Positions 47 to 8,126 are shown, counted from the stretch's first letter. The stretch is DNA of 10,822 nucleotides from Phycisphaeraceae bacterium (GCA_028277685.1 JANQFT010000356.1:1-10822); one strand, 5' to 3'. Notes: generated by a model not told the origin, from the sequence alone. Numbers and translations: made by a program.

Positions 47-86
47 GGCCGCCGCGCGACCTGTATCGCGCGGCGGCCGATCAGGC
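47..86 (-). terminator. Putative intrinsic terminator of the SPFH gene: perfect 12-bp GC-rich inverted repeat followed by a U-rich tract on the minus strand
   Basis: The + strand reads ggccgccgcgcg-acctgtat-cgcgcggcggcc, a 12-bp perfect stem with an 8-nt loop. On the minus strand the hairpin is followed by UUUCUCCUU. It sits immediately 3' of the SPFH stop. Confidence 0.45.
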
Positions 87-1235
87 ATCTTCATCTTCCA
101 TCATCGAGCGGAAACCGCAGCTGTTCTCATCGGTGGTCAGGCTTCGCACCTGCTCGACCAGGTCGCCCTTGCCGAGCACGAACGTTGCCTTCACGCCTTT
201 GAGTACTTCGCCGATTGCTTCCAGTTCGCGCATACGCGCGAGGGTGGGGTTGTCGGCCAGCAGCTTCGCGGTGTTCGCCTGGCTACGCGCCGCGGCGGTG
301 TCTTCACGACGTCGGATCAGGTTCGCTTCCGCCTGCTTCTGTGCGAGGATCACCTCGTTCAGAATCGACTTCATTTCACCGGGCAGGATGATGTCGCGCA
401 GGCCGATGCTTCGCACGACCACGCCGAACTCCGCCGCACGCGACGCCAGGGCGTTACGTACTTCGTTGCCCACTTCATCCTTATCCGACAGCAGCTTCTC
501 GAGCAGGCGGCCGCCCACCGCTTCACGTAGCACGAGCTGCGCTTCACGGTACAGGGCCTGGGCGTAATCGCTTACCACGGTGGCTGCCTTCACTGCATCG
601 ATTACCTGGTAAGTCACCACCAGGTTGACGCGAAGGGTTACTTTGTCGTTGGTCATGATTTCCTGACCCGCAACGTCGGCAACCTGTTCACGCAGATCGA
701 TGATCTTGCGCTCGATGCGGCCGGCACCGCGCCAGTAGACGTGCTTGCCTGCCTCCAGTTGCGCTACCTGTTTACCATCTCGATACAGCAGCACGGTTTC
801 ACCGGGCTCAATAGTCACGCCGTCGAACCAGTTCGATGCGCCCTGCATCGCGAGGATGGGCTCAATCTTGTTGTGTTCGAAGACGAAGTCGTTCACGTCG
901 TAGACTTCCACGTCGATCTTTGCTGGCGCTTTCCAGAACGCGTGGCGACCGGGACCAATCACCCAGCCGATACGGCCGTCCTTCCAGATAAGCGCTCGCT
1001 GGTTGTCGGTCAGATCAACCACTTCCAGGTGCGACGCGACCACGTGTTCGTCGACGAGTAAGTCGATGAGTGTATGCTCGAACTTCGTGTCCAACTTGTT
1101 GACGATGTGAACGCGATTGCGTCCGAACCAGTTGAACCATTGGCGGTACTTGCCCGGTTCGAGCAGACGGTGGAAATCGCCGTGGCGGAACCACAGGCCG
1201 ACTTCGTGTTTACGGATGCGAAGTGTTTTGAACAT
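81..1235 (-). CDS. SPFH/band-7 (stomatin/slipin-like) domain protein, ~385 aa, no obvious N-terminal transmembrane helix, N-terminal region with three copies of a ~45-aa beta-motif
   Basis: The ORF 81..1667 is open upstream, but only the ATG at 1233-1235 has a strong RBS (ccaaaAGGAGccaggacc-ATG). The upstream extension is low-complexity R/G/P-rich and overlaps a tRNA. The protein shows band-7 hallmarks: ...QEIMTNDKVTLRVNLVVTYQVID..., a coiled-coil C-terminal part (LAQKQAEANLIRRREDTAAARSQANTAKLLADNPTLARMRELEAIGEVLK), and three repeated ExG..W.R.G...PG.H.W motifs at the N-terminus. Confidence 0.8.
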   Translation of the reverse strand: MFKTLRIRKHEVGLWFRHGDFHRLLEPGKYRQWFNWFGRNRVHIVNKLDTKFEHTLIDLLVDEHVVASHLEVVDLTDNQRALIWKDGRIGWVIGPGRHAFWKAPAKIDVEVYDVNDFVFEHNKIEPILAMQGASNWFDGVTIEPGETVLLYRDGKQVAQLEAGKHVYWRGAGRIERKIIDLREQVADVAGQEIMTNDKVTLRVNLVVTYQVIDAVKAATVVSDYAQALYREAQLVLREAVGGRLLEKLLSDKDEVGNEVRNALASRAAEFGVVVRSIGLRDIILPGEMKSILNEVILAQKQAEANLIRRREDTAAARSQANTAKLLADNPTLARMRELEAIGEVLKGVKATFVLGKGDLVEQVRSLTTDENSCGFRSMMEDEDA

Positions 1236-1584
1236 GGTCCTGGCTCCTTTTGGGAGTGAGGTGTGTGAATCACGCGTGAACACCACGGCGTGTTGTGATA
1301 AGAAAAGCGGCGGGCCGGAGCGCAACGCATCACGCCCGTTGACCCCGTCATCAACAACGGCGTCGACTTGAGCGGCGGCCTGAAGCGTGCAGACGTCAAA
1401 CAGCCGCACGCCGCGAAGCGCCCTCCCCCCTGAGGGCAAAAACTTCGTCGGCGTGGGGCCGAATGACCGCCACGCGGTACCGCCGCGGTATCCGTCGAAC
1501 GACATGGCTGTGATGTCGGTGTTGCACAAGGCAACCGGTCGGGGCGATCGCGTGCATCCCGACCCGCCTGTTGGTGCCCTTAAC

Positions 1585-1635
1585 CGAGGGCCTTCGAGGG
1601 GACTTGAACCCCGAGGGTGGATAACCCTGCCATGG
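1585..1635 (-). other. tRNA-like remnant: T-arm-like hairpin (GGGG-TTCAAGT-CCCC) plus a short upstream hairpin; does not complete a cloverleaf
   Basis: The reverse complement contains ...AGGG-TTATCCA-CCCT-C-GGGG-TTCAAGT-CCCC-TCGAAGGC. No pairing 5' acceptor strand is present and there is no variable-region spacing. It abuts the 3' end of the tRNA at 1636..1708. Confidence 0.25.
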
Positions 1636-1708
1636 TGTGCGAGGCTGGATTCGAACCAGCTACCCATCGATCCTTAGTCGATTGCTCTACCTAATGAGCT
1701 ACTCGTGC
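1636..1708 (-). tRNA. tRNA, anticodon AAG (loop CTAAGGA), class-I (5-nt variable loop), A73; isotype uncertain (Leu-box anticodon on a non-Leu-type scaffold)
   Basis: Hand fold: acceptor GCACGAG/CTCGCAC with two adjacent A.C/C.A mismatches at 2:71 and 3:70. D-arm GCTC-ATTAGGTA-GAGC is perfect, anticodon stem ATCGA/TCGAT is perfect, and T-arm GCTGG-TTCGAAT-CCAGC is perfect. Confidence 0.6.
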
Positions 1709-1805
1709 ACATCACCTGAACCGGTCGAACCCGTGTCGCGGAATACATGTCGACAAAGTCTTGTGCACCGCCGGACGATACCGGTGACTGCTGAAGCAAA
1801 AGGAA

Positions 1806-1878
1806 CACGCGCGGCAGGAATCGAACCTGCATATGATGGTTTTGGAGGCCACCGCTCTTCCAATTGAGCTACGCACGT
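1806..1878 (-). tRNA. tRNA-Trp (anticodon CCA)
   Basis: Acceptor ACGTGCG/CGCGCGT (one G-U). D-arm GCTC-AATTGGAA-GAGC. Anticodon loop CTCCAAA is identical to the E. coli tRNA-Trp loop, with a C31:A39 mismatch as in known Trp tRNAs. T-arm GCAGG-TTCGATT-CCTGC, discriminator G. Confidence 0.85.
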
Positions 1879-1889
1879 ACTTCGGGCAA

Positions 1890-1962
1890 CTGCCCCGACT
1901 GGAATCGAACCTACACCCTTCGGGTTAAAAGCCCGATGCTCAGCCATTCGAACTCCAGGGTC
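1890..1962 (-). tRNA. tRNA-Lys(TTT)-like; anticodon arm, T-arm and 3' acceptor strand present, 5' third (acceptor 5' strand and D-arm) does not pair - probably degenerate/pseudo
   Basis: Anticodon stem TCGGG/CCCGA is perfect with loop CTTTTAA (TTT). T-arm GTAGG-TTCGATT-CCAGT has 2 G-U and 1 mismatch. The 3' acceptor is CGGGGCA+G, but the 5' region (…GACCCTGGAGTTCGAATGGCTGAGCA) has no matching TGCCCCG and no GCTC/GAGC D-stem. It lies 12 nt from tRNA-Trp. Confidence 0.45.
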
Positions 1963-2025
1963 GAAGTGTGTGACAAGGAAAGCATGGAATGGCATCCCAT
2001 CCCACGTTTCGAATTGTGCTTCTGG

Positions 2026-3258
2026 TCAATCCTTGTAGGGATCGAACTCATCCTCACCGGCCATGGCCACGCCGATGGGGGTGAGGGTGTGGATGATACG
2101 CACTGTTGAGCCGTGCGCTTCGAGTACTTCGGGCAGGCGCTTGTAGCAGTGGGGCGATTCATCGGTGCCCGCGCCCCGCAGTTCAACGCCGGCTTTGTGT
2201 ACCCAATCCATCATCATCTCACGCGAGATCTGGCCTTCGCTTTTGCGAACGAAGCCGCGCGCTTTCTTTGACCAGCGTTTCTTGCCAGCCGCTTGCGTAC
2301 GACTCATCACACGGCCGGCGCCGTGCACGGTCGATCGCAGGGCCATAACACTGTCTTCGCTGTCCATACCTTCAAGGATTACCGAAATATCGCCCATCGA
2401 ACCGCCTACGAATCCGCGTTGACCGGGAAACGCCGGCGTTGCGCCTTTGCGAACGATCCAGACATCGAGTTCGCAGTTGTCGATGAGGTGCGTTTCCTTC
2501 CACGCGTAGTTGTGATGGTTGTGTACCTCTTCAACAATGCGCGTTTCCAGCAGGCGGGCTACCTTCTGGCAAACCCAGTCGCGACCGGCATACGCATATT
2601 CCCCAGCCAGTTGCATGCACTGCAGATACTCCGCTCCGAGATTGGAATGCTCGTGGAACACAACCGGTTCAACGTGCATGCCGTCGGCACCACCACCTTT
2701 CTCGATAAAGAATGAAGCGATCTTGTGGCCGAGTCCGCGGCTGCCGAAGTGCACACCGCACCAGACGCGGTCTTCCTCATCAATGAACAGGTCAACGTAA
2801 TGGTTGCCCGAACCCACCGTGCCCAACTGTTCACGAGCCAGGTTTTTCAGGTTACGGTTCTTCGGACCTGTTATGCGCAACTGCTCAATCAGTTTCCAGG
2901 TTTCATCATCGAACAGTTCGTGGTCAACTTGCTCCTGGTTCTTTCGACCAACGCCGAACGAAATGCTCTTGAAGATCATGTTCATGATCTTGGCGATGTC
3001 GCGTCGCACGTCCTCGGCTTTGACGTCCAGTCGCACTGCTTTGTTGCCGCATGCGATGTCGTAACCAACACCCGAAGGTGAAACCATACCGTGGTAGGCC
3101 ACTACACCCCCGATCGGCATCGCGTAGCCCAGGTGGTGATCGCCCATCAGTGCGCCTGCCGCAGCATCCTTGTTTGCCAGACAAGTCTTGATCTGACGAA
3201 CTGCGCCTTCGTCCGGTTCACCCCAAACGGGTACGTTATCGATATTCGTGTAAGCCAT
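2026..3258 (-). CDS. rtcB: RtcB-family RNA 3'-phosphate/5'-OH ligase (RNA-splicing/repair ligase), 410 aa
   Basis: Full-length ORF with RBS GAGGTGcagc-ATG. RtcB hallmark motifs are present: ...GDHHLGYAMPIGGV..., ...DIACGN..., ...TVGSGNHYVDLF..., ...STVHGAGR..., with conserved His/Cys metal ligands and a length typical of RtcB. tRNA genes lie 52 nt upstream and 64 nt downstream on the same strand. Confidence 0.9.
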   Translation of the reverse strand: MAYTNIDNVPVWGEPDEGAVRQIKTCLANKDAAAGALMGDHHLGYAMPIGGVVAYHGMVSPSGVGYDIACGNKAVRLDVKAEDVRRDIAKIMNMIFKSISFGVGRKNQEQVDHELFDDETWKLIEQLRITGPKNRNLKNLAREQLGTVGSGNHYVDLFIDEEDRVWCGVHFGSRGLGHKIASFFIEKGGGADGMHVEPVVFHEHSNLGAEYLQCMQLAGEYAYAGRDWVCQKVARLLETRIVEEVHNHHNYAWKETHLIDNCELDVWIVRKGATPAFPGQRGFVGGSMGDISVILEGMDSEDSVMALRSTVHGAGRVMSRTQAAGKKRWSKKARGFVRKSEGQISREMMMDWVHKAGVELRGAGTDESPHCYKRLPEVLEAHGSTVRIIHTLTPIGVAMAGEDEFDPYKD

Positions 3259-3309
3259 GCTGCACCTCGCAAACTCATCATACGTGTGTTGTTGTTTCTA
3301 TTCTGTGAA

Positions 3310-3382
3310 AGCATTGTGTTGGAATCGAACCTGTGACCTTCTGGACCCAAACCGGACGCTCGGCCGATTGAGCTTCGCTCTG
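3310..3382 (-). pseudogene. tRNA-Pro(TGG)-like unit with intact 5' two-thirds but non-pairing 3' T-stem/acceptor strand (degenerate or chimeric tRNA)
   Basis: 5' acceptor CAGAGCG, A8A9, D-arm GCTC-AATCGGCC-GAGC perfect, anticodon stem TCCGG/CCAGA (1 mismatch), loop TTTGGGT (TGG). The T-loop TTCGATT is flanked by ACAGG on the 5' side and CCAAC on the 3' side, which do not pair. The 3' tail ACAATGC cannot pair with CAGAGCG. Confidence 0.4.
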
Positions 3383-3398
3383 GATAGAATGTCCGTAA

Positions 3399-3470
3399 TG
3401 GAGCCGCGGGGAGTTGAACCCCGATCATCCGGGTGCAAGCCGAGCGCTCTGCCAATTGAGCTACAGCCCC
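3399..3470 (-). tRNA. tRNA-Ala (anticodon TGC)
   Basis: Acceptor GGGGCTG/CGGCTCC with the diagnostic G3:U70 wobble. D-arm GCTC-AATTGGCA-GAGC. Anticodon loop CTTGCAC. T-arm CGGGG-TTCAACT-CCCCG, discriminator A. Confidence 0.85.
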
Positions 3471-3556
3471 CTGCTACGCCAAGGCTTCGCAGGGCTACGC
3501 GCACCTTCGCGTCATACGAAGTAGTGCGCGTTCTGCGAAGCTTCAGCGAAGCAGAA

Positions 3557-3630
3557 TGTCGCCGGAAGGATTCGAACCTTCACTGTCAGCCATCTCATGA
3601 CTGCGCCTCTGCCAGTTGGGCTACGACGAC
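3557..3630 (-). tRNA. tRNA, anticodon GAG (loop ATGAGAT), class-I, A73; member of a three-gene paralogous family; isotype uncertain
   Basis: Acceptor GTCGTCG/CGGCGAC (1 G-U). D-arm GCCC-AACTGGCAG-AGGC. Anticodon stem CAGTC/GGCTG. T-arm GAAGG-TTCGAAT-CCTTC is perfect. Variable loop is 5 nt. It lies 5 nt from the next tRNA. Confidence 0.6.
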
Positions 3631-3635
3631 GAGAA

Positions 3636-3709
3636 TAGCCCGGGTGGGAGTCGAACCCACAACTCACCAGTTTTAAGCCGGCGTCCTCTGCCAGTTGGGA
3701 TACCGAGCC
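3636..3709 (-). tRNA. tRNA, anticodon TAA (loop CTTAAAA), class-I, A73; paralog of 3557..3630 and 3712..3785; isotype uncertain
   Basis: Acceptor GGCTCGG/CCGGGCT (2 G-U). D-arm TCCC-AACTGGCAG-AGGA (T at position 10). Anticodon stem GCCGG/CTGGT. T-arm GTGGG-TTCGACT-CCCAC is perfect. 2-nt spacer to the next tRNA. Confidence 0.6.
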
Positions 3710-3711
3710 AA

Positions 3712-3785
3712 TACCGCCGACTGGATTCGAACCAGCACTGCACCGATTCTGAGTCGGTTCCCTCTGCCAGTTGGGGTACGACGGC
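3712..3785 (-). tRNA. tRNA, anticodon CAG (loop CTCAGAA), class-I, A73; paralog of the two preceding tRNAs; isotype uncertain
   Basis: Acceptor GCCGTCG/CGGCGGT (2 G-U). D-arm CCCC-AACTGGCAG-AGGG (C at position 10). Anticodon stem ACCGA/TCGGT is perfect. T-arm GCTGG-TTCGAAT-CCAGT. Variable loop GCAGT. Confidence 0.65.
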
Positions 3786-3867
3786 GTTAGTTATTTGGTG
3801 ATCTGGTGACTGGCGATTTCGTAATTTGATATTGCAGGCCGCACAAGACATTGCGCGAGGCGCGAAG

Positions 3868-3940
3868 CTGGGTTGGTGGGATTCGAACCTGCAAAAGCCG
3901 GATTCGTAATCCGGCGCCCGTCCAATTGAGCTTCGGGGTG
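3868..3940 (-). pseudogene. tRNA-Arg(ACG)-like unit; D-arm and anticodon arm perfect, but 3' T-stem half and acceptor 3' strand do not pair (degenerate or chimeric)
   Basis: D-arm GCTC-AATTGGAC-GGGC. Anticodon stem CCGGA/TCCGG is perfect with loop TTACGAA (ACG). The T-loop TTCGAAT has GCAGG on the 5' side but CCCAC on the 3' side. The 3' tail CAACCCA cannot pair with the 5' CACCCCG. A8A9 replaces U8. Confidence 0.4.
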
Positions 3941-3948
3941 GAGGCGAA

Positions 3949-4021
3949 AGCCGCAGGTCGGCGTCGAACCGACAACCTGCTGTTTACAAGACAGCTGCTT
4001 TGCCATTTGAGTTACTGCGGC
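3949..4021 (-). tRNA. tRNA-Thr (anticodon TGT)
   Basis: Acceptor GCCGCAG/CTGCGGC is perfect. Anticodon stem GCTGT/ACAGC is perfect with loop CTTGTAA. T-arm GTCGG-TTCGACG-CCGAC is perfect. The D-stem is weak. Confidence 0.8.
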
Positions 4022-4036
4022 AATGTGAAAACCAAA

Positions 4037-4110
4037 CGGCACCGACGGGATTCGAACCCGCGACCTCTTCCGTGACAGGGAAGCGCTCAGCCAAACCGAG
4101 CTCCGGCACC
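4037..4110 (-). tRNA. tRNA-Asp (anticodon GTC)
   Basis: Anticodon arm CTTCC-CTGTCAC-GGAAG. Variable loop plus T-arm AGGTC-GCGGG-TTCGAAT-CCCGT are nearly identical to E. coli tRNA-Asp. Acceptor GGTGCCG/CGGTGCC, discriminator G. Confidence 0.9.
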
Positions 4111-4235
4111 AGGCGAATCGCGGAGAGCAAACGCTCCACCGTCGGGCCACTGCGCTGTCGAACGCATGAAAAAATTTGACAGTGTCTATGCCACGATCCG
4201 TGTCGTCTACTTCTGCTGAAATGAATCAACAGCAA

Positions 4236-4306
4236 TTGACCCGGCAGGATTCGAACCTGCGTCCACCGATTATCAGTCGGCCGCTCATCCACTGAGCTAC
4301 GGGTCA
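4236..4306 (-). tRNA. tRNA-Ile (anticodon GAT)
   Basis: Acceptor TGACCCG/CGGGTCA is perfect. D-arm GCTC-AGTGGAT-GAGC. Anticodon stem GCCGA/TCGGT with loop CTGATAA, as in E. coli Ile. T-arm GCAGG-TTCGAAT-CCTGC, A73. Confidence 0.85.
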
Positions 4307-4400
4307 AGGACAGGCTCAGAGCGCACGCGCTCCAAGCCGTTGCATCCATCCGCTGTTCACTTGTCAAAGATCACTGCGCTGCAAGCAGCGCCCAAGGCAA

Positions 4401-4472
4401 TGGCTGGTCTCGGAGTTGAACCGAGGTCTCCCGCTTTTCAGACGAGCGCTATACCGACTGAGCCAACCAGCC
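4401..4472 (-). tRNA. tRNA-Phe (anticodon GAA)
   Basis: Acceptor GGCTGGT/ACCAGCC is perfect. D-arm GCTC-AGTCGGTA-TAGC, matching the Phe-type AGUCGGUAGAGC. Anticodon loop CTGAAAA. T-arm CTCGG-TTCAACT-CCGAG is perfect, A73. Confidence 0.85.
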
Positions 4473-4481
4473 GTATGTGAA

Positions 4482-4554
4482 TCGCCACGGTGGGATTCGA
4501 ACCCACGCACTCCTCTTTGTAAGAGAGGCGCTCTGGCCACTGAGCTACGCGGCA
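4482..4554 (-). tRNA. tRNA-Val (anticodon TAC)
   Basis: Anticodon arm CCTCT-CTTACAA-AGAGG is perfect and identical to the E. coli Val loop. T-arm GTGGG-TTCGAAT-CCCAC is perfect. D-arm GCTC-AGTGGCCA-GAGC, A73. 9 nt from tRNA-Phe. Confidence 0.85.
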
Positions 4555-4631
4555 AGATGTTCGCGCACCGATCGCGCATCCATGTCGGCCACGGCTTACA
4601 CCACCAACGGGTGTGCACGCTTCAGTTTCAA

Positions 4632-4704
4632 TGGCGGTGGCAGGATTTGAACCTGCGATCTCCGGGACATGCGCCCGGTGAGGATTCCGCTCCTCTACAC
4701 CGCA
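4632..4704 (-). tRNA. tRNA-Met (anticodon CAT) with initiator-like features (TTCAAAT T-loop, GGG/CCC anticodon stem, unpaired 1:72) but G at position 33
   Basis: Acceptor TGCGGTG/CACCGCC with a T1.C72 mismatch. D-arm GAGG-AGCGGAAT-CCTC. Anticodon arm CCGGG-CGCATGT-CCCGG. T-arm GCAGG-TTCAAAT-CCTGC, A73. Confidence 0.65.
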
Positions 4705-4705
4705 A

Positions 4706-4776
4706 TCGCGACGGTTGGATTTGAACCAACACCTTTCCCTTATGAGGGGAGTGCTCTGCCATTGAGCTACATCGCG
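4706..4776 (-). tRNA. tRNA-Met (anticodon CAT; loop CTCATAA), T-loop TTCAAAT; first gene of the array within this window, 1-nt spacer to next tRNA
   Basis: Acceptor CGCGATG/CGTCGCG (1 G-U). D-arm GCTC-AATGGCA-GAGC. Anticodon stem CTCCC/GGGAA (4 bp + mismatch) with loop CTCATAA. T-arm GTTGG-TTCAAAT-CCAAC is perfect, A73. Confidence 0.8.
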
Positions 4777-4922
4777 CGAGCTATTTACTTGTCAAAGGCC
4801 CAATCTTATGCGGCGAACGCGATATACATCCCACAGCAACACGAGGCCGAATATGCCTGAAAACACAGGCAAAACGCACACGATGCACCACCAGCAACAG
4901 GATGTCATTCGGTGTTGGCCGG

Positions 4923-5687: not shown

Positions 5688-8126
5688 TTAATCCAAGCGA
5701 AGCACGATGGATGCATCCTGGCCGGGGACGAGGTTCACACGCTGGGTCTGCTTCTTACCGTTTGTGTGGACGGTGACTTCGTGTTCGCCGAAGAACGCGC
5801 GCACGGTGGTTTGACCTTGGGCATTGGTGGTGACTGTCTCATCCGTCCACCAGCGTTTGTAGACCAGGTCAATCCATGCCTGGCCGATCGGTTTGATGGT
5901 CCAGTCGCGCCGCCATAACGCCGCAGTGGGTGCCCAGTGTCGGCCCTCCCAGAAGCCCCACAACTGCACACCCGTCATGCGCGGGTGCGCGAACGCCAGA
6001 ATCACCGAATCGCGCAGCACATCCGCCTGGTATGCCAGCTGATCCGGGTCCCACGCATCGTCGATGCGTACGTCCAGTTCGGTCACCACGATGTCTTTGT
6101 CGTGGCGCGCGACCATGGCATCCCAGATGGCCCACGGCTCGACTTTACCATGCTTGTTCGGTTTGAGGCGATCGACAAAGCCGCTGTGGCCTTGCGTGCC
6201 CAGGCGGTCGATCGGCGCGTTGTTGGCCAACAGGTAGCCCACCCATCCGCCATGTTTCTCGCGGAGTTCAGCCGGCAGGCCGCCGCCGTGGTCGGCCCGC
6301 ACGTTCCATCGCGGTTCCAGGAACGTAAGCTTCACGTTGGGATCGGCCGCGCGGGCCAGGCGATACCATTCGACCATCTCCATCGGGCCGTACATGTCCA
6401 TGAAGTCGCGGTTGCCGCCGGTTTCGTTGGTGACATCCCAGTCGTCGATCAGGCCGTGGAACGTGGTGACGTAGTTGGTCACATGATCGCGCACGATCTG
6501 TTGCAGTTTGACCGGGTCGGTCTTGGCCAGTTTCTTGTATTCATGTGGGGTGTGGTAGATGCTCGGCCAGACGAGCACGTGGCCGCGCGTCTGCAGGCCG
6601 TGCTTGCGCGCCCATTCGAGCAGTTGCTTGGTGTTGGCCTGGCTGAAGGCGTTGGTCTGTCGGTGCTGCACCCACTTCAGTGAATTCTCCGGGCCGACGC
6701 CGTTGAAGTATTTGAGGATCGTTTCGCGATACTTTTTGCCATTTTCGCCCTGGTCGACCCAAACGGGGTTGGCCGTGGCCGTGCCGAACAGGAAGGCGTG
6801 GCGTTGCATGGCCACGTGCACTTTGGCGTTGGGTACGGATTGCTGATTGGCATCGACCACCTGCACGCGCAGATCACCTTTGCGGTACTTCTCGATGCGC
6901 TGCGCCGCTTCGGTGCGCCACGGTGCGTCAGCAGCGCGGCCGAGGTAACTCCAGTTCTTCTTGGGCAGGTGCGCCAGGTTCGACCCCTTGGGGAAGATCA
7001 TCCACGCCACACCGCCGATCTGCACATCCTGCGCCTTGTGGCCAAGCATCATCAGCAGTTCCAGCTTGCCCGGTGGGAAGTCCCACTTGCTGGGGGTGCG
7101 CGTCAGGATGAAGTAGCGCTGCCATTGTTCGGTCAACGCCTTGCGGTCGTGGTAGAAGGTAAGTTGCCGGTGCTTGGGGCCGTCGATCAGCGACTTGATG
7201 AACGGCTGCACCATCGCGCCCTGGCCGTCATCCACCTTCTGCGGCTTCTTCCTGCCCTTCGCCCAGAACGTGACCAGCACGGTGTCACCTTTGTAAATCG
7301 GTTCGCGATTGCGCTGGGCAAGATTGACATGCGCCGGATGCCGATGGCCGCCCGGCACGTGCACCTTGCGGGCATGCTTGAAGGGTTGACCTTCAACCGT
7401 GATCGCCTCGCCGGAGTTTCGCAGTTGCTTCATGGCCTCGGCTTCAGTCCCACCGACCACGAAGTAAGCCGGGCCGATCTTGGTGAATTCCTTCTTCAGG
7501 CTCGCGAAGTAGTCGTTAGCGGGGATGGTCTGCGGTTCGCGCTCGCCCAGGCGCATTTTCTCGAGCGTCGCTTTCTGCTCGGCGGTCAGTTCGCGCTCGG
7601 CGCTGACGGTGATGGTCATGTCCTTCAGGTCGAACGTACCGCTGGATTCCCAGAAGCCGACCATGAACTTCAGGGACGTAGCGCCCAGCGGCACATCCCA
7701 TTCCGCGGTGTACTGCTGCCAGTCGTCCGAAGGATGACAATGGATGACCGGGGGCCTGGCCTTGGGGTGGCTGGGGAAGACCGGTTCGATGCGGCTCATC
7801 TTCCAGCCGGCGTCGCCCTTCTTGAGATCCTTCACGCGCACCCACACGCTGAACTTGAGTTTCGACCACGTCGGCGCCAACGGAAGCGTGGAACCGATGA
7901 TCGAGTGGCCCTGTTTGGCTCGGGTGATGCGGAGGAAGGTCTGGTCGCCTTCGGTGATGACGTTGACCTGCTTGTGAAGCCATTGGGGCACCCCCCAGCC
8001 GCGCGGGTTCTTGAATTGCCCGGCGGTGAACTGGCCCTGCTTGAAGACGTTGGCGTTGTCGGCATGTAGCGATGTGCCCAGCATGAGCAGGGCAATACAG
8101 GCGATTAGCAGACGGTGGTAGGTCAT
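5688..8126 (-). CDS. Secreted glycoside hydrolase family 10 endo-1,4-beta-xylanase with N-terminal carbohydrate-binding-module-like region, 812 aa
   Basis: RBS cAGGAAGaacc-ATG. N-terminal signal peptide MTYHRLLIACIALLMLGTSLHA. The C-terminal catalytic domain carries GH10 signatures: GPENSLKW, GHVLVWPS, WDVTNE (acid/base Glu) and VTELDV (nucleophile Glu). The N-terminal ~180 aa beta-sandwich region resembles xylanase CBM4_9/CBM22-type modules. Confidence 0.85.
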   Translation of the reverse strand: MTYHRLLIACIALLMLGTSLHADNANVFKQGQFTAGQFKNPRGWGVPQWLHKQVNVITEGDQTFLRITRAKQGHSIIGSTLPLAPTWSKLKFSVWVRVKDLKKGDAGWKMSRIEPVFPSHPKARPPVIHCHPSDDWQQYTAEWDVPLGATSLKFMVGFWESSGTFDLKDMTITVSAERELTAEQKATLEKMRLGEREPQTIPANDYFASLKKEFTKIGPAYFVVGGTEAEAMKQLRNSGEAITVEGQPFKHARKVHVPGGHRHPAHVNLAQRNREPIYKGDTVLVTFWAKGRKKPQKVDDGQGAMVQPFIKSLIDGPKHRQLTFYHDRKALTEQWQRYFILTRTPSKWDFPPGKLELLMMLGHKAQDVQIGGVAWMIFPKGSNLAHLPKKNWSYLGRAADAPWRTEAAQRIEKYRKGDLRVQVVDANQQSVPNAKVHVAMQRHAFLFGTATANPVWVDQGENGKKYRETILKYFNGVGPENSLKWVQHRQTNAFSQANTKQLLEWARKHGLQTRGHVLVWPSIYHTPHEYKKLAKTDPVKLQQIVRDHVTNYVTTFHGLIDDWDVTNETGGNRDFMDMYGPMEMVEWYRLARAADPNVKLTFLEPRWNVRADHGGGLPAELREKHGGWVGYLLANNAPIDRLGTQGHSGFVDRLKPNKHGKVEPWAIWDAMVARHDKDIVVTELDVRIDDAWDPDQLAYQADVLRDSVILAFAHPRMTGVQLWGFWEGRHWAPTAALWRRDWTIKPIGQAWIDLVYKRWWTDETVTTNAQGQTTVRAFFGEHEVTVHTNGKKQTQRVNLVPGQDASIVLRLD

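Follow-up and report, generated by a model that had tools for sequence, protein, structure and literature searches.

The window analysed here is a whole contig of 10,822 nucleotides from a Phycisphaeraceae bacterium (GCA_028277685.1, JANQFT010000356.1). It carries, on its minus strand, three nearly abutting tRNA genes that combine leucine anticodons with the short variable loop of class I (type I) tRNAs. A canonical bacterial tRNALeu is of type II and has a long variable arm (more than 10 nt, folded as a stem-loop), which none of the three possesses. The genes are as follows.

3557-3630, minus strand: type I tRNA-Leu(GAG), called by ARAGORN and by RF00005 (48.3 bits)
3636-3709, minus strand: type I tRNA-Leu(UAA), called by ARAGORN and by RF00005 (45.0 bits)
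3712-3785, minus strand: type I tRNA-Leu(CAG), called by ARAGORN and by RF00005 (48.8 bits)

All three scores lie above the RF00005 gathering score of 29 bits, with window E-values of 5e-8 to 4e-7, and each match covers the full length of the gene (model positions 1-71). In the covariance-model alignment, positions 34-36 are GAG, UAA, and CAG, respectively. U33 and A37 are constant in the 7-nt anticodon loops (AUGAGAU, CUUAAAA, and CUCAGAA); the variable loops comprise 5 nt (ACAGU, GAGUU, and GCAGU, in the same order). The three genes share the D-arm N-CCC-AACUGGCAG-AGG-N, with a 9-nt D loop and a 3-bp D stem, and the discriminator A73. The only non-standard pair in each gene is C13.A22; the CAG gene has the acceptor stem GCCGUCG/CGGCGGU, with G1.U72. 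The spacers between the genes are 5 nt and 1 nt, and CCA is encoded in none of them. An earlier, sequence-only reading of the window had described three class I paralogs with these anticodons, a distinctive common D-arm, A73, and 5-nt variable loops, and the two programs bear out this description. The Leu triplets stay at positions 34-36 under the model and, because each gene totals 74 nt, no long variable arm has been overlooked.

The same reading held that the fold works on the minus strand only, which agrees with RF00005, as its plus-strand matches all lie far under the threshold. Reading the loops on the opposite strand as CTC, TTA, and CTG is meaningless: the triplets are mere complements, and no tRNA model fits the plus strand. 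In single-sequence thermodynamic folding, the z-scores ranged from −0.6 to −1.4, and only one of the three genes folded into the cloverleaf, an uninformative result that is usual for tRNAs. The structural case therefore stands on the covariance model and on the covariation described below.

The distribution of the shared D-arm was investigated with the exact 15-mer CCCAACTGGCAGAGG, which was scanned in two public collections (viral and genomic). Each collection holds at least 120 loci with it; the 240 loci listed were fetched, and ARAGORN found 1024 tRNAs in them. The following statements on the family concern the matches listed. At least 153 tRNAs contain the 15-mer, in at least 147 loci (88 viral and 59 genomic); in the remaining 93 of the 240 loci, it lies in non-tRNA DNA. 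All 153 have Leu anticodons (CAA 56, UAA 42, UAG 32, CAG 14, GAG 8, and AAG 1) and are 74-80 nt long, and no class II tRNA with the 15-mer was found among the 1024 tRNAs. A single tRNA is present in 49 of the 59 genomic loci, mostly on long chromosomal contigs of Actinomycetota (Mycobacterium, Nocardia, Amycolatopsis, Cellulomonas, Nocardioides, Plantibacter, and others). Many Mycobacterium assemblies share one CAA gene body, with a few copies differing at 1-2 bases, and these calls vary only in the extent of the 3′ CCA included. The other 10 genomic loci are arrays of 2-22 tRNAs, 8 of them with at least 7, and belong to Kribbella, Polyangiaceae, Myxococcales, Planctomycetota, and Microcoleus. 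The D-arm is thus the mark of a large family of short-armed Leu tRNAs, whose members look like housekeeping genes in Actinomycetota and travel on phages and arrays elsewhere.

Several cultured phages have members of this family, annotated as plain tRNA-Leu of 74-77 nt: Myxococcus phage Mx1, Pseudomonas phage ZC03, Enterococcus phage EFDG1, cyanophage P-RSM6, Bacillus phage P59, and mycobacteriophages of cluster C. There are two such genes in Mx1, and in ZC03 one type I gene lies next to an 84-nt type II gene. Besides the D-arm NCCCAAnnGGCAGAGGN and the Leu anticodon, the phage genes have in common with those of the window A73 and a 5-nt variable loop whose last base is U; they are 73-81% identical to the window genes. 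They are located on phage genomes, whereas the window genes are in a chromosomal or metagenome-assembled genome (MAG) island, and the phage annotations are silent on the missing arm. A megablast search of the whole window against phage records gave no match. No publication stating that phage or array Leu tRNAs are of type I was found, which is weak evidence since literature coverage is incomplete.

A second viral sample was picked by an unrelated generic D-arm (loci L251-L368). Here, 13 of the 50 Leu-anticodon tRNAs were 80 nt or shorter; 46 of 47 Ser tRNAs and 22 of 25 Tyr tRNAs were of class II. Leu tRNAs, and not those for Ser or Tyr, thus often shed the long arm in this viral sample, and the asymmetry calls for an explanation. 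Short forms (80 nt or less) of the other two isotypes were seen at 5/26 for Tyr-anticodon tRNAs and 1/57 for Ser in the first set (L001-L240), and at 3/25 and 1/47 in the second.

The sequence-only reading had left mischarging or a non-Leu identity as possibilities. We examined the identity of the tRNA bodies with one profile hidden Markov model per isotype, built from the fetched tRNAs with the anticodon masked; the window tRNAs were masked too. Type I Leu was represented by two profiles, one of tRNAs with the 15-mer and one of tRNAs lacking it. The GAG body scored 45.5 and 46.6 bits on these two profiles, respectively (next isotype, 24.1 bits), the UAA body 51.5 and 50.6 bits (next, 34.4 bits), and the CAG body 54.5 and 51.9 bits (next, 33.2 bits). 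The margin of type I Leu over any other isotype is therefore about 20 bits for the three masked bodies.

The identity and tertiary elements of the Escherichia coli leucyl-tRNA synthetase (LeuRS), namely A73, A14, A15:U48, and G18G19 (PMC6614811), are present in all three genes. In the two type I Leu groups, the frequencies are 100% and 97% for A73 and 98% and 90% for A15:U48; the corresponding figures for the class II Leu tRNAs of the same loci are 100% and 97%. The combination of A14, A15:U48, and A73 was found in only 12% of 585 non-Leu class I tRNAs. Since the masked-body scores and this combination agree in all three genes, a non-Leu identity is unsupported, and the suggested mischarging was not borne out. 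Pair 3-70 is C-G in all 13 type I Leu genes at syntenic positions (described below), with no G3:U70.

A mistranslating tRNA has the body of one isotype and the anticodon of another, and deliberately mistranslating tRNAs have a precedent in bacteria. The absence of the long variable arm could be taken to mean that the three genes are identity-switched tRNAs of this kind, charged with another amino acid. However, both body and anticodon point to Leu in each of them, all 153 listed tRNAs with the D-arm have a Leu anticodon, the determinants A73, A14, and A15:U48 are in place, and a bacterial tRNALeu of the same form has been shown to accept leucine (PMC6614811). We consider this explanation scarcely credible.

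The bacterial precedent is found in Streptomyces coelicolor, where a single LeuRS (ScoLeuRS) serves one tRNALeu gene of type I, with anticodon CAA, and four of type II (Fan et al. 2019, NAR 47:6369, PMC6614811). The kcat/Km of ScoLeuRS is 6.25 per second per micromolar for type I and 14.2 for type II tRNA, the shortest variable loop giving good charging is 5 nt, and deletion of the type I gene was not possible. The ability to charge type I tRNALeu is conferred by the leucine-specific domain, and human mitochondrial LeuRS also charges the Streptomyces type I tRNA (PMC6614811). The premise of the sequence-only reading that bacterial tRNALeu is always of type II is thus out of date, and it is further countered by the occurrence of the D-arm family in Actinomycetota chromosomes, in phages, and in arrays of many phyla.

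The S. coelicolor type I tRNALeu(CAA), also bacterial, shares with the window genes the 5-nt variable loop and the possession of a Leu anticodon. Its gene, which has C48, is essential and occurs once, on the chromosome, whereas the window has three putatively supernumerary isoacceptors with U48 in an A15:U48 pair, within a mobile array of what is probably a non-actinobacterial genome. The likeness was drawn from published features. Animal mitochondrial type I tRNALeu also resembles the window genes in its short variable loop and A73; however, it belongs to another sequence family, has a relaxed elbow, is not charged by ScoLeuRS, and gives no evidence of a relationship to the window genes. The three genes of the window are best described, from their sequences, as new isoacceptors of the already known type I form of tRNALeu.

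These genes are part of a larger tRNA array. The further features of the window are as follows.

1633-4776, minus strand: same-strand tRNA array (ARAGORN and RF00005), syntenic with the arrays of six other contigs (L244 and L246-L250)
81-1667, minus strand: open reading frame (ORF) of the SPFH/Band 7 family, 3′ of the array (PF01145, E = 3.7e-29)
1636-1708, minus strand: class I tRNA with anticodon AAG (RF00005, 57.2 bits, with two flagged acceptor mismatches)
1891-1962, minus strand: weak tRNA-Lys(UUU)-like gene (RF00005, 31.9 bits; no ARAGORN call)
2026-3258, minus strand: RtcB RNA ligase of 410 amino acids, inside the array (PF01139, E = 3.4e-67; PHROG tRNA splicing ligase, 5.9e-73)
3305-3398, minus strand: tRNA-Pro(UGG) pseudogene, called by neither ARAGORN nor RF00005, aligned to intact genes of L246, L247, L249, and L250
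3866-3948, minus strand: tRNA-Arg(ACG) pseudogene (RF00005, 24.1 bits, sub-threshold, model positions 7-64 only), aligned to intact orthologs
4349-4391, minus strand: TTGACAAGTGAA motif between tRNA-Phe and tRNA-Ile, preceded by a hairpin; position of the motif conserved in 7 of 7 arrays
4780-4797, minus strand: second copy of the TTGACAAGTGAA-type motif, directly upstream of the first Met tRNA

ARAGORN found 13 tRNA genes in the array, all on the minus strand. RF00005 also gave 13 at or above the gathering score, and a permissive scan gave 14 by adding the second Met gene (4632-4704), plus one sub-threshold stretch. The order is Met, Met, Val, Phe, Ile, Asp, Thr, pseudo-Arg, Leu(CAG), Leu(UAA), Leu(GAG), and Ala, followed by pseudo-Pro, RtcB, the Lys-like gene, Trp, and the AAG tRNA. 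A GH10 glycosidase and an AraC regulator are encoded upstream of the array. RtcB joins 3′-phosphate or 2′,3′-cyclic phosphate ends to 5′-OH ends.

Homologs of the window RtcB are 74-83% identical to it, and one of them (83%) bears a name that assigns it to a Planctomycetota MAG. This RtcB and the Planctomycetota arrays with the shared D-arm make a Planctomycetota-like MAG the probable setting of the window array; a homolog search with the GH10 protein yielded no informative names. The six contigs L244 and L246-L250 contain the same array in the same order, with RtcB orthologs (74-82%) in the same place, 21-36 tRNAs, and unrelated flanking genes. The sister order begins Met-Met-Val-Phe-Ile-Asp-Thr-Arg(ACG)-Gln-Arg(CCG)-Leu(CAG, type I)-Leu(UAA, type II, 82-86 nt)-Leu(CAA, type I)-Leu(GAG, type I) and ends Ala-HNH-Pro-His-Gly-RtcB-Lys-Thr-Arg-Asn-Trp-X-Band 7-Gly-Cys-Ser-Tyr-Glu-Gln-MerR, the HNH endonuclease gene being present in L244, L247, and L248. 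The type II UAA genes have a paired variable arm and are placed between the type I genes in L246, L248, and L249; types I and II therefore co-exist in these arrays as they do in S. coelicolor.

The window CAG gene has orthologs in all six sister arrays (L244, L246, L247, L248, L249, and L250), and the GAG gene has orthologs in L246, L247, L248, and L249, with an identical acceptor stem in L246. The counterparts of the window UAA gene are the type I CAA genes at 8985-9059 in L246 and at 8296-8371 in L248; the type II UAA genes of these two arrays do not match it. Apart from position 72, it is identical to the CAA genes in the acceptor stem, the T-arm, the D-stem, and the 5′ strand of the anticodon stem; the 3′ strand of the anticodon stem differs at position 40, where G30.U40 replaces G30-C40. 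The type II UAA gene is missing from the window array. By this comparison, the window UAA gene is the product of a CAA to UAA anticodon switch (C34 to U), which coincided with the loss of the type II UAA gene from the lineage. A modified U34 would keep both UUR codons readable after the switch. The window thus offers a small, clean case of isoacceptor remodelling.

Covariation was evaluated over the 13 syntenic type I Leu genes of the seven arrays, using 20 stem pairs. Standard pairs occupy 99.6% of the cells, and compensatory changes (on both sides) were found in 12 of the 20 pairs. This level was reached by none of 500 shuffles, and no slid register comes near it.

The sequence-only reading had grouped the three genes with the AAG tRNA at 1636-1708 as a set of four Leu-codon readers. 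The AAG gene exists, but it differs from the others in several features. Its D-arm is AGCUCAUUAGGUAGAGC, with U15/A48 and an 8-nt D loop, its acceptor stem has C2.A71 and A3.C70 mismatches, and it alone among the four encodes CCA. The profiles on which its masked body scored highest were those of Asn, Lys, Ile, and Phe; both Leu profiles fell outside the top four. The positional orthologs have AAG with G73 in L248 and GAU in L246, with imperfect acceptor stems in both, and the calls at this position in L244, L249, and L250 are odd or unassignable. The unlike D-arm, the generic body that does not resemble Leu tRNAs, and the GAU ortholog in L246 rule it out as a fourth paralog. It is probably degenerate or non-canonical, judging by these features, and may have no part in translation. 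Evolution is fast at this position of the array.

Dense same-strand groups of supernumerary tRNA genes without encoded CCA are known as L-arrays (PMC8421152) and tRNA array units (PMC4758250, PMC12803027). Like the family of the window array, they occur in unrelated genomic contexts across sister genomes and are associated with RtcB and an HNH endonuclease. The order kept in seven loci with unrelated flanks agrees with the description of L-arrays as long, same-strand, horizontally spread, and supernumerary, the supernumerary status here being inferred. A tRNA array unit is defined by at least 20 tRNA genes at a density of at least 2 per kb (Tran et al. 2016, PMC4758250); the window copy, an eroded version, falls short of the 20 genes, with 13-14 callable tRNAs spread over about 3.1 kb and RtcB lying between them. 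RtcB lies inside the array in the window, whereas the Anabaena gene is located elsewhere in the genome and is co-regulated with the array. The SPFH/Band 7 gene embedded in the window array is also unlike the known L-arrays and array units.

The sequences show the gene structure, family membership, compensatory conservation, synteny, and the anticodon switch; expression, leucylation by the host LeuRS, and a role in stress or anti-defence are inferred. LeuRS does not read the anticodon, and the host enzyme would recognize the type I body by A73, A14, A15:U48, G18G19, the 9-nt D loop, and the 3-bp D stem. The array is a horizontally mobile same-strand unit of the L-array or tRNA array unit kind, and its polycistronic transcript would carry the three Leu tRNAs. 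RNase P and RNase Z would release them; CCA would be added after the cut, since none is encoded and the spacers are so short. The three tRNAs most likely accept leucine and decode CUC/CUU (GAG), UUA/UUG (UAA), and CUG (CAG), jointly covering these codons. The array RtcB would reseal tRNAs cut by anticodon nucleases, and the array as a whole is most plausibly a means of providing and repairing tRNAs when translation is stressed or tRNAs come under attack. We hold this explanation as a whole to be probable.

Several observations weigh against it. The Streptomyces type I tRNALeu was not charged by the LeuRS of E. coli or S. purpurogeneiscleroticus (PMC6614811); therefore, charging by the LeuRS of a non-actinobacterial host is not to be assumed. 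The window is an entire 10.8-kb contig, and the LeuRS and housekeeping tRNAs of the host lie outside it. The array is eroded, with two clear pseudogenes and two doubtful genes, and may be decaying. A sigma-70 promoter scan of the window gave 0 sites, against 2 expected by chance, which is uninformative for a non-model phylum. In the GAG gene, A32 and U38 can pair, and the minimum-free-energy fold extends the anticodon stem to 7 bp and closes the loop to 3 nt; its orthologs have C32/U38, U32/G38, or U32/A38 at these positions. Finally, the CUN-reading genes (GAG and CAG) have A37 instead of the customary G37 (m1G37), the usual base in CUN readers.

The failure of the E. coli-type enzyme in vitro leaves room for tRNAs that are made but not, or only poorly, leucylated. 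They would have a role outside translation, such as that of a decoy or sponge drawing off tRNA-targeting nucleases, and RtcB would reseal them. The RtcB gene embedded in the array fits this idea, sequestration of toxin RNases by array tRNAs was raised as a speculation in the L-array study (PMC8421152), and a putative anti-defence function has been discussed for tRNA array units (Yano et al. 2026, PMC12803027). However, a pure decoy would not need the LeuRS identity elements, which are kept at the frequency of class II Leu tRNAs. The family spans all six Leu anticodons, and a CAA to UAA switch where the class II UAA gene was lost suggests selection for decoding. The family is also found in lytic phages of Pseudomonas, Enterococcus, and Prochlorococcus. 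On balance, a decoy function is unlikely.

The erosion of the array bears on another possibility, namely, that the array, once acquired horizontally, is decaying and that its genes survive as silent relics with no present function. About half of the genes of the sister arrays are absent from the window. In the Arg(ACG) remnant, the 5′ two thirds are conserved, and the 3′ T-stem and acceptor strands are unpaired; the Pro(UGG) remnant has kept its 5′ half and anticodon arm, and its 3′ strands no longer pair. Alignment with orthologs places a 1-base deletion in the 3′ acceptor strand of the Lys(UUU)-like gene, and the mismatches of the AAG tRNA belong to the same picture, as does the lack of a promoter-like site in the sigma-70 scan. 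The Anabaena L-array is silent or poorly transcribed under standard conditions and is induced together with rtcB upon translational stress (PMC8421152). However, the three Leu cloverleaves are flawless except for C13.A22, which is family-wide, their differences from the orthologs are compensatory and not disruptive, and the RtcB and SPFH ORFs are intact. We regard the relic explanation as quite improbable and retain that of leucine-accepting, decoding tRNAs.

For annotation, a Leu anticodon on a 74-nt body denotes a recognizable family and is neither an error nor a mistranslating tRNA; its diagnostics are the D-arm NCCCAAYUGGCAGAGGN, A15:U48, and A73. The range of the family, from solitary genes in Actinomycetota to arrays in Planctomycetota, Myxococcota, and Cyanobacteria and to phages of many hosts, suggests that type I tRNALeu is far commoner than the lone biochemically studied Streptomyces case. 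Because E. coli LeuRS was unable to charge the Streptomyces tRNA, the question arises of which LeuRS enzymes accept type I tRNALeu and whether the array and phage copies are charged in their hosts. Loss of the variable arm could be adaptive, and not neutral, if the type I form were favored on phages and arrays because it escaped host nucleases or toxins that recognize type II tRNAs or their arm. We think this unlikely. Charging by LeuRS would still be needed, and many non-actinobacterial LeuRS enzymes would then have to charge type I tRNALeu, contrary to the E. coli result.

Some further observations were made on the array and its relatives. Unrelated arrays with type I tRNALeu were seen in a Myxococcales MAG (L228, 19 tRNAs), which has a Band 7 homolog (34% identity), and in Kribbella (L127, 11 tRNAs), which has an RtcB homolog (31% identity). 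These hint that RtcB and Band 7 proteins may be recurrent passengers of arrays. A contig of 264 kb (L242, ENA contig_39465) encodes an RtcB 81% identical to that of the window in a 21-kb stretch without tRNA genes; therefore, the ligase gene also occurs outside arrays in this lineage.

The motif between the Phe and Ile tRNAs has the form (TC)TTGACAAGT(G/A)AA(C/G)AGC(A/G)GAT in all seven arrays and is preceded by a GC-rich hairpin in most of them. In the sister arrays, it is located at 7455 (L244), 7915 (L246), 1390 (L247), 7314 (L248), 5510 (L249), and 2625 (L250). The second copy upstream of the Met tRNA is present in the window, L244, and L246. An internal terminator combined with a promoter is one possible role of this element; another is that of an operator, comparable to the direct repeats controlling the Anabaena array.

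The SPFH/Band 7 ORF is 56-68% identical to its counterparts in L244, L246, and L248 (tblastn). Its start is uncertain because the mechanical ORF overlaps the AAG tRNA. The tblastn similarity (query residues 18-140) reaches well upstream of the gene starts in the sister arrays (L244 12131-13477 and L246 12152-13687), and the protein may have a conserved N-terminal extension that starts near the last tRNA. A T-arm-like sequence, GGGGTTCAAGTCCCC, is located at about 1592-1606, in the upstream part of this ORF.

At some loci of the D-arm scan, the first 25-35 nt of a type I tRNALeu-like sequence (the acceptor strand and the exact D-arm) are followed by DNA without a recognizable tRNA. Such 5′ fragments were found in Actinomycetota (L121, L123, L172, and L189) and in viral contigs (L012, L031, L014, and L091), and they may represent interrupted genes or what is left of the attachment sites of integrating elements.

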